Assembly: GCA_964606695.1 (NCBI GenBank)
Contig: CAZSHG010000007.1
Span: 2,456 to 66,455, forward strand
Direction: 5' to 3'
Source of the DNA: an uncultured bacterium
GTDB taxonomy: Bacteria > UBP14 > UBA6098
Length of the DNA: 64,000 nucleotides
Shown: positions 14,971-15,270 of the stretch, piece after piece
Layout of the letters: every line of letters starts with the position of its first letter
Position numbering within the stretch: the stretch's first letter is position 1
Translations under genes and position numbers: made by a program
The notes under the pieces: generated by a model
What the model was told of the DNA's origin: nothing
Databases searched by the model: none
What the model saw: only the letters and a program-made list of their open reading frames with translations

Positions 14971-15002
14971 TCAAAGAACTTTAACTGGCGCGCCCGATGC
15001 TA

Positions 15003-15030
15003 CGGACGGCCTACGGATTCGTGGTCCGGT
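15003..15030 (-). other. Anticodon-stem-loop-like copy of tRNA-Arg(ACG) in the tadA 5' region (copy 1)
   Basis: Minus strand reads CCGGACCACGAATCCGTAGGCCG, compared with the tRNA GCCGGACTACGAATCCGTAGGCCG. The ACG anticodon is retained and U33 is changed to C. Confidence 0.4.
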
Positions 15031-15038
15031 TTTATCAA

Positions 15039-15112
15039 CGCGCCCGGCAGGATTCGAACCTGCGGCCTACGGATTCGTAGTCCGGCGCTCTATCCAGCTG
15101 AGCTACGGGCGC
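15039..15112 (-). tRNA. tRNA-Arg (anticodon ACG)
   Basis: Acceptor GCGCCCG/CGGGCGC, anticodon loop CTACGAA. Confidence 0.85.
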
Positions 15113-15157
15113 GAATCAATTCGCTTATTCATATTTTCAAATACGCGCGACTCTAAG

Positions 15158-15188
15158 GGTAGCTTACGGATTCGTAGTTCGGCGTTTT
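15158..15188 (-). other. Anticodon-arm-like copy of tRNA-Arg between the two tRNA-Arg genes (copy 2)
   Basis: Minus strand reads GCCGAACTACGAATCCGTAAGC; the loop is identical to tRNA-Arg(ACG). Confidence 0.35.
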
Positions 15189-15196
15189 GTCTTAAA

Positions 15197-15270
15197 CGCG
15201 TCTGGCAGGATTCGAACCTGCGGCCTACGGATTCGAAGTCCGGCGCTCTATCCAGCTGAGCTACAGACGC
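15197..15270 (-). tRNA. tRNA-Arg (anticodon TCG)
   Basis: Near-identical backbone to the ACG isoacceptor; acceptor GCGTCTG/CAGACGC, loop CTTCGAA. Confidence 0.85.

Follow-up and report, generated by a model that had tools for sequence, protein, structure and literature searches.

The stretch analysed here is 64,000 nucleotides (nt) of contig CAZSHG010000007.1 (assembly GCA_964606695.1) from an uncultured bacterium of the lineage UBP14, and is called the window throughout. On its minus strand it carries, in this order, the gene for the transfer RNA (tRNA) tRNA-Arg(TCG), an 82-nt spacer 1, the gene for tRNA-Arg(ACG), a 67-68-nt spacer 2 and tadA, which encodes the tRNA adenosine-34 deaminase. 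Each spacer holds a short look-alike of the anticodon arm of tRNA-Arg(ACG), and these “mimics” are probably decayed partial copies of tRNA-Arg(ACG), that is, scars of the attachment-site (att) or partial-duplication type which integration would have left behind. A first-pass annotation, made from the letters of the window, had suggested an autoregulatory decoy for TadA and, as the alternative, remnants of decayed tRNA copies; the latter is supported by the present analysis and can be sharpened to 3'-partial copies whose start agrees with the repeat ascribed to an integrase-bearing element. The gene order that it gave is confirmed by ARAGORN, Rfam and the NCBIfam TadA model. The features concerned are as follows.

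15196..15271, minus strand: tRNA-Arg(TCG) (ARAGORN; Rfam tRNA model, 72.9 bits)
15144..15184, minus strand: fragment 1, in spacer 1, read as a decayed 3'-partial copy of tRNA-Arg(ACG), positions ~25-73 (arm alignment, stem and loop table)
15038..15113, minus strand: tRNA-Arg(ACG), the TadA substrate, without encoded CCA (ARAGORN; Rfam, 69.5 bits)
14989..15029, minus strand: fragment 2, in spacer 2, read as a decayed 3'-partial copy of tRNA-Arg(ACG), positions 27-73 (alignments, stem and loop table)
14512..14970, minus strand: tadA, tRNA adenosine-34 deaminase, 152 amino acids (open reading frame; NCBIfam TadA model)

The Two tRNA Fragments in the Window

The segment CCGGACCACGAATCCGTAGGCCG at 15029-15007 corresponds to positions 27-49 of tRNA-Arg(ACG), namely the anticodon arm and the variable region, with 22 of 23 nt identical, and CGCCGAACTACGAATCCGTAAGC at 15184-15162 is identical to the arm of this tRNA at 21 of 23 positions. 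The dinucleotide-shuffled window gave no match to the arm at three or fewer mismatches, the E values of the two copies in blastn-short are 1.4e-5 and 8e-4, and by the same program no other significant partial copy was found for the 14 tRNAs in the window. Therefore, the arm copies of about 23 nt with a retained ACG, which the first-pass annotation had seen in each spacer, are real. They are not, however, copies of the anticodon arm only, as had been stated there: each is ~41 nt long (15029-14989 and 15184-15144), runs past the arm through a degenerate T-arm region and ends in the 3' strand of the acceptor stem (CGGGCGCG in spacer 2 and GCGCG in spacer 1). The stretch between the arm and the acceptor strand aligns weakly to the T loop (GTCCGTAGCAT versus GTTCGAATCCT), and neither copy has any part of the tRNA's 5' third. 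Neither ARAGORN nor Rfam, even at E values up to 10, calls a whole tRNA in either spacer, and the Rfam search of 13500-16000 at that limit gave no family besides tRNA.

Both fragments lie on the same strand as tRNA-Arg and 9-13 nt past the 3' end of a tRNA-Arg gene, and they are 74% identical to each other over 39 nt (repeat family D1). In the tadA-proximal fragment 2 the stem is intact and the loop reads CCACGAA, with C in place of U33, while the distal fragment 1 keeps the loop CUACGAA in a stem broken by an A·C mismatch.

Relatives and Their tRNA Trailers

The scan for TadA in GTDB genomes, taking one genome per species, revealed no close relative of the window TadA, the best match being 53% identical. 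The only locus of that scan with tRNA-Arg(ACG) upstream (L009, TadA 45% identical) has the order tRNA-Arg(ACG)-tadA-tRNA-Ser with a ~20-nt spacer and no fragment. A large protein collection gave about 10 TadA clusters at 58-71% identity to the window TadA; the contig of P0124, whose GlnRS is 87% identical to that of the window, ends before the tadA locus, and among named organisms the GlnRS of Caldithrix and KSB1 come nearest, at ~70% identity. The contigs of these relatives are syntenic with the window, the TadA of the syntenic loci being 61-71% identical to the window TadA, and they have a divergent DUF3078 gene (in most of them), tRNA-Arg(ACG), tadA and, where the contig reaches it, tRNA-Ser(GCT), and the tRNA-Arg(ACG)-tadA order occurs in seven lineages and in the unrelated L009. 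The sequence of tRNA-Arg(ACG) is identical across the syntenic relatives except in L101, which differs in the D-loop, the variable region and the T arm. Only 0.28-0.54 of the four-fold degenerate sites of tadA are identical between the main lineages (0.67 for L058 versus L069), which means that neutral sites are saturated. The sequences following the tRNA 3' end (trailers) in the relatives are as follows.

L100 (closest relative, TadA 71% identical): CATTTTTGAAAAG-ATTACGAATCCGTAGGCCGTCCGTGGGACCGGGCGCG-CATTTTGAAAG, then tadA; CATTTTGAAAG is a second copy of the trailer
L066: CATTTTTGAAAAG-ACTACGAATCCGTAGGCCGCGTGC...
L069: TTTTTTTGAA-ACGAATCCGTAGGCCGCGCGC-TTTTTT, then a second decayed copy
L058: ACGAATCTGTAAGCCAGCGCGC
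L060: AAGAATCTGTAAGCCCGCGCGC
L065: only GGCCGTCCGCAGGGCCGGATGCAC; the copy is mostly lost and GGCCGTCCGCAGGGCCGG alone is kept
L067: a very decayed copy between tRNA-Arg(ACG) and tRNA-Arg(TCG); none adjoins tadA, as tRNA-Arg(TCG) intervenes
L101: no copy
L070 and L071: tadA without tRNA-Arg upstream

The fragments of L100 and L066 begin at A31 of the tRNA and those of L069, L058 and L060 at the ACG, so the 5' strand of the stem is missing from all five; L069 and L058 have two fragments in succession. Similarity to the tRNA in the relatives extends past its 3' end into the trailer. Fragment 2 of the window is orthologous to the fragment of L100 and to fragment A of L108, a contig described below, and the similarity of its tail to L100 was matched in none of 3000 shuffles. 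The TadA proteins of L058 and L060 are the same, and so are the four-fold sites of their genes; of the 31 differences between the two loci over 3.4 kb, however, three fall within 19 nt of the fragment, including a change from ACG to AAG in L060. Purifying selection therefore does not act on the fragment there.

When metagenomes were scanned with the 3' half of tRNA-Arg(ACG), 26 loci came up (L074-L099). Among them the identical 47-nt half is found also in other lineages, those whose tRNA gene encodes CCA. In these the trailer is an ordinary hairpin with a T-run or unrelated sequence, and neither a fragment nor a downstream tadA is present, whereas the tRNA-Arg(ACG) gene of the tadA-linked clade lacks the encoded CCA.

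An Integrase-Bearing Element at the Same tRNA

As far as 3 nt beyond the tRNA (...GGGCGCGCAT), L084 shares 96% identity with L066; from there on it has other genes: a tyrosine integrase (Pfam Phage_integrase, E 9.5e-33), hsdM, hsdS and hsdR, which constitute a type I restriction-modification system, and a YgjP-like gene. In addition, a scan of viral contigs with a 16-mer core gave nine contigs, of which seven are chance matches in unrelated sequence and one is a complete CCA-encoding tRNA, and only L108 is informative. L108 is a 43.8-kb provirus contig from the same metagenome as L084. Its final 270 nt begin with gcttgcaga followed by ACTACGAATCCGTAGGCCGCAGGTTCGAATCCTGCCGGGCGCGCAT, which comprises positions 31-73 of the tRNA, the T arm being intact, together with CAT. 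Next come TTTTGAAAAG and fragment A (ACTGCGAATCCATAGGCCGTCCGTAGGACCGGGCGCG), then CATTTTTGAAAAG and fragment B (ACTACGAATCCGTAGGCCGCGCGC), and then ATTATCTTATTATTTTGAAAGCTCTTTGA and the ATG of tadA, so that the intact repeat and fragment A are each followed by CATTTTTGAAAAG. The tadA-side flank of L108 (trailer, fragment and tadA start) is 98% identical to L066; by alignment, fragment A is of the type seen in spacer 2 of the window and in L100, and fragment B is of the L066 type. Fragment A (10319-10355) reads ACTGCGAAT, with G in the DNA at the equivalent of A34.

The perfect repeat in L108 begins at A31, which is the exact start base of the fragments in L066 and L100. On its element side a degenerate tRNA-like stretch runs back to about position 18, and the additional CCGG of the window copies could stem from it. 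Taken together, the two contigs suggest that an integrase-bearing element of ~44 kb sits between the tRNA and tadA in the L084/L108 genome. Another tRNA of the cluster serves as an integration site in L071 (3012-4284): the tRNA-Ser(GCT) behind tadA is followed, at a distance of ~150 nt, by the start of a gene for a tyrosine integrase.

Origin of the Fragments

Because the L108 repeat and the L066 and L100 fragments start at the same base, the mimics are best read as att-type or partial-duplication scars. In the process envisaged, integrative elements would recombine with the 3' part of tRNA-Arg(ACG), each event leaving a fresh copy ahead of the older ones, and deletion between tandem copies would remove some of them, so that the array of fragments before tadA grows and shrinks; slippage between the resulting tandem repeats may add further copies. 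The window would then represent a state with two old copies and no element left, and the fragments would belong to the trailer of the tRNA and not to a dedicated tadA leader. Repeated regeneration fits the observation that several fragments are identical to the tRNA at 15 of 15 or 20 of 20 positions at a locus where neutral sites are saturated, as old neutral copies would have diverged.

Several points weigh against this reading. The window has no integrase or island at the locus, so that an origin by integration is deduced from the relatives, and L084 and L108 are taken to be two ends of one element because they come from one metagenome and their host flanks agree. In the window the fragments begin at positions 25-27, which is 4-6 nt 5' of the A31 boundary in L108. 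Furthermore, the 13-nt spacing of the tandem copies is not the simplest outcome of a single integration followed by imprecise deletion, and slippage or unequal recombination would have to be added. Finally, the non-tRNA segment GGCCGTCCG and its pairing partner are conserved in the window, L100, L065 and fragment A of L108, which hints at some constraint, for example on a GC-rich hairpin, beyond a pure scar.

A neutral decay of tandemly duplicated tRNA-Arg genes by slippage or unequal crossing-over, with no mobile elements involved, would explain the tandem tRNA-Arg genes found in differing orders at this locus (TCG-ACG in the window and ACG-TCG in L067), the duplication of the trailer along with the fragment and the two successive fragments in L069 and L058; moreover, a 78-nt tandem array with a 5' fragment of tRNA-Ser nearby in relatives indicates that duplication of the slippage type is active here. 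This account is nevertheless unlikely, since no fragment keeps the 5' third of the tRNA, the fragments in L066, L100 and L108 start at the very base at which the repeat begins that seems to bound an integrase-bearing element, and fragments which match the tRNA almost perfectly in lineages whose synonymous sites are saturated require recurrent renewal. The conserved non-tRNA segment raises a further and minor possibility, which does not exclude integration and is itself rather improbable: the scar may have been co-opted as a GC-rich hairpin (GGCCGUCCG pairing with CGGGCG(C)GCC) which, in the tRNA-tadA transcript, would weakly terminate or attenuate transcription or would stabilise the 5' end once the tRNA 3' end has been processed. 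Such a hairpin is present in the minimum-free-energy fold of the window spacer, its GTCCG and the partner are conserved in the four sequences named above despite saturated divergence, the change of CGGGCG to CGGAUG in L065 still allows pairing with CGUCCG as read from the sequence, and the second fragment of L058 is a clean hairpin with a T-run. However, only three or four sequences are concerned, with no double compensatory changes among them; there is no U-run after the hairpin in the window, it is absent in L066, L069, L067 and L101, and the fold energy of the spacer is not significant.

A duplicated unit consisting of tRNA, fragment and tadA start was also considered, in which case the end of spacer 1 would derive from the first part of tadA; the alignment was no better than that of shuffles (p ~0.3) and the candidate was rejected.

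The Decoy Hypothesis

A decoy would require that the fragment in the tadA leader folds as a look-alike of the anticodon stem-loop and that binding of TadA, perhaps with deamination, feeds back on the translation or stability of the tadA message. TadA edits non-tRNA stem-loops which bear its motif (PMC5630033, PMC12255301), and tadA regulation is little known (PMC11472039). In RNAfold, spacer 2 of the window indeed forms a 4-bp stem with a 7-nt loop in the register of the tRNA arm; spacer 1 does not form it. The check by folding which the first-pass annotation had recommended thus gave the arm-like hairpin, but the fold of the spacer as a whole is no better than that of shuffled spacers (z -1.4; 14 of 200 shuffles equally good). 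TadA editing, however, requires the seven bases YUACGAA in a stem-loop and is lost, or all but lost, when one of them is replaced (PMC12255301; see also PMC5630033). When stems and loops were tabulated for all fragments of nine lineages, a closed stem together with a YUACGAA loop was found in none: all four stem pairs of the genuine arm occur only in spacer 2 of the window, the loop of which reads CCACGAA with C at U33, whereas YTACGAA is kept in spacer 1, L066 and L100, yet in stems which are broken (spacer 1) or have lost the 5' strand (L066 and L100); the remaining fragments have neither.

Nor is the stem-loop kept in the relatives. L100, L066, L069 and L058 lack the 5' strand, L065 has lost most of the copy and L101 has none, the copy of L067 follows the tRNA and is not next to tadA, and the ACG has become AAG in L060 while TadA is unchanged. 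The first-pass annotation itself had named, as grounds for refuting its proposal, relatives without the arm-like segments, similarity along the whole length of the tRNA and separate promoters for tadA. The results count against the decoy on these grounds, since, besides the losses in relatives, the copies reach the 3' end of the tRNA and, in relatives, the trailer, and in one relative an element appears to part tadA from the tRNA promoter. Since the fragments are not maintained as stem-loops, the decoy is not supported, and it must be regarded as extremely improbable. A broader version, in which the scars have been co-opted in some lineages as a tadA leader, is also very unlikely: TadA would recognise the YUACGAA-bearing fragment RNA (spacer 1, L066 and L100) or the stem of spacer 2, or the GC-rich hairpin would set the read-through from the strong tRNA promoter to tadA. 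If true, TadA recognition of leader scars would tie TadA synthesis to the amount of free enzyme.

Two other modes of action of the fragment core were tried and rejected. As an anti-start-codon element (CGAAUCCGU pairing with AUGGAUAUCG, RNAfold of the spacer plus the start of the coding sequence) the duplex reaches -9.0 kcal/mol, for which 14-23% of shuffled spacers are as good, and the pairing is unused in the folds of L100 or L066 and weakened in L069 and L058. As to pairing of the core with a conserved site in the tadA coding sequence, the best sites differ among lineages.

Transcription and Neighbouring Features

The further features of the cluster are listed below.

15314..15342, minus strand: promoter-like block TTGCAT-17 nt-TACATT, 5' of the first tRNA (kept at the same distance in the window, L058, L069, L066 and L067)
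15283..15300, minus strand: leader hairpin of the pre-tRNA, GACC...GGTC (by-eye comparison with relatives)
14971..14979, minus strand: motif GTTCTTTGA, abutting the tadA start codon (consensus G(T/C)TCTTTGA in relatives)
14029..14117, minus strand: tRNA-Ser(GCT), 3' of tadA (ARAGORN; order also in relatives)
13889..13963, minus strand: tRNA-Lys(CTT), end of the conserved cluster (ARAGORN; order also in L058-L062 and L066)

The block CTTGCATTT...TTACATT is conserved in five lineages although it is below the threshold of a simple consensus scan, and a promoter function is suggested for TTGCAT/TACATT from its sequence. It is followed by GGATTGCTTT and then by the small leader hairpin. The relatives have hairpins of other sequences at the same place (GGCCGA..TCGGC, GGCCGA..TCGGTC and TTCCGG..CCGGA), with the pairing kept as judged by eye, and the hairpin may act in the processing or regulation of the pre-tRNA. 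The simple promoter and terminator scan found neither a minus-strand promoter nor a terminator in either window spacer. With the promoter-like block upstream and none in the spacers, read-through into tadA is plausible; location on one strand, spacers of 28-81 nt, the upstream promoter-like block and the conserved order are traits of mixed tRNA-protein operons, and by analogy transcription that starts at the tRNA promoter probably often continues into tadA. Co-transcription of tRNA and tadA is thus plausible, but it cannot be obligatory and the linkage to the tRNA promoter would be dispensable, because L058 has a hairpin with a T-run before tadA and the ~44-kb element appears to lie between the tRNA promoter and tadA in L084/L108.

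Against the NCBIfam TadA model the tadA product reaches 140.8 bits (E 3.4e-41); it has the HAE and PCPMC zinc motifs, and the first ATG is backed by the peptide MDI[DE]KD..[FY]M, which is kept in relatives. There is no Shine-Dalgarno sequence at this start. G(T/C)TCTTTGA stands directly 5' of the ATG in all lineages examined (L058, L066, L067, L069, L070, L071 and L100, with the variants GTTCTTTACA in L065 and GTTCTTTGCAA in L101), including L070 and L071, where no tRNA-Arg precedes tadA. The motif occurs again after tadA at 14482-14491 (family D9), and it also opens each unit of the 78-nt array. It may belong to the translation start region or to a promoter, or may be a site for a protein. 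This array lies between tadA and tRNA-Ser(GCT) in L059 (3498-4202; also in L058, L060-L062 and L065) and consists of ~8 tandem units which are 95% alike; each unit starts with GTTCTTTGA and holds the first 14 nt of tRNA-Ser (GGAGAGGTGGCCGA) and two small inverted repeats. A single degenerate copy of the unit is present in the window at about 14273-14295, with GAGGTGGCCGG at about 14283-14273. The array is a second case in this clade of tRNA gene fragments multiplying beside the tRNA gene.

The two tRNA-Arg genes of the window are 94% identical (repeat family D2), while those of L067 (2257-2447), in the order ACG-TCG, are more unlike each other than the TCG-ACG pair of the window. The acceptor stem GCGTCTG of the window tRNA-Arg(TCG) is that of L067, which, together with the 94% identity, suggests that the tRNA bodies have been homogenised in the window lineage. 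A further cluster on the minus strand of the window (38195-40590) consists of tRNA-Thr(TGT), tRNA-Tyr, tRNA-Gly(TCC) and tRNA-Thr(GGT), with tRNA-Trp further downstream, which is the usual arrangement around tuf and secE-nusG.

This uncultured clade, whose neighbours at the locus include Por_Secre_tail (the C-terminal signal of type IX secretion) and DUF3078 proteins, conserves the order tRNA-Arg(ACG)-tadA-tRNA-Ser(GCT) on a single strand. Among 57 other TadA loci sampled, tRNA-Arg(ACG) lies upstream of tadA in one. A tRNA-Ser gene 10-230 nt downstream of tadA was found in 15 of the 57 loci fetched (L003-L022 and L104; Chloroflexota, Clostridia, Edwardsbacteria and others) and is far more widespread than tRNA-Arg(ACG) before tadA. 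The literature search found no paper describing either the linkage of tRNA-Arg(ACG) to tadA or autoregulation of tadA.

Significance and Comparison with Known Systems

The clade keeps tadA directly behind the gene for the only known tRNA substrate of TadA, within a tRNA cluster. The fragments would be an ordinary by-product of mobile elements, and possibly of slippage, at a tRNA gene, and the main value of recognising them as such is that it halts a tempting regulatory story. The locus would also be a new example of integration scars, with the twist that they pile up in tandem before a gene and stay tRNA-like while their surroundings are saturated. Knowledge from other bacteria suggests that tadA is essential, and for any study of its regulation in such organisms the scars are the first sequence of interest.

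Partial copies of tRNA genes (attL and attR repeats), made by elements which target the 3' part of a tRNA gene, are well described and widespread in prokaryotes (reviewed in PMC9897764, which cites Reiter 1989 and Williams 2002 for them). Like such copies, the fragments lie downstream of an intact tRNA in the same orientation and extend from the anticodon region to the 3' end, and relatives have an integrase beside the tRNA (L084) and a perfect repeat from A31 to CAT at the presumed far end (L108). Unlike them, the window copies have no element between the repeats, stand in tandem 9-13 nt past the tRNA with a decayed T arm, and start a few bases 5' of the L108 repeat. Compared with TadA substrates (PMC5630033, PMC12255301), the fragments derive from the substrate's own arm and some keep CUACGAA or UUACGAA. 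No fragment, however, has the heptamer and the closing stem together.

In Escherichia coli, threonyl-tRNA synthetase represses its own messenger RNA by binding leader stem-loops which resemble an anticodon arm, and this thrS operator is a conserved structured element that overlaps the ribosome binding site. The window is similar in that an anticodon-arm look-alike of a tRNA stands before the gene of an enzyme which binds this tRNA. The tadA look-alike, however, is not conserved as a structure and lies at least 40 nt from the start codon, and a whole tRNA intervenes in one relative. The mixed tRNA-protein operon thrU-tyrU-glyT-thrT-tufB of the same species offers the other comparison. The tadA locus differs in that some relatives (L058) have a terminator-like hairpin before tadA and that an island appears to lie between the tRNA and tadA in one relative; the likeness consists in tRNAs and a translation-related gene which lie on one strand with short spacers, behind a promoter-like block and with none recognisable between them.

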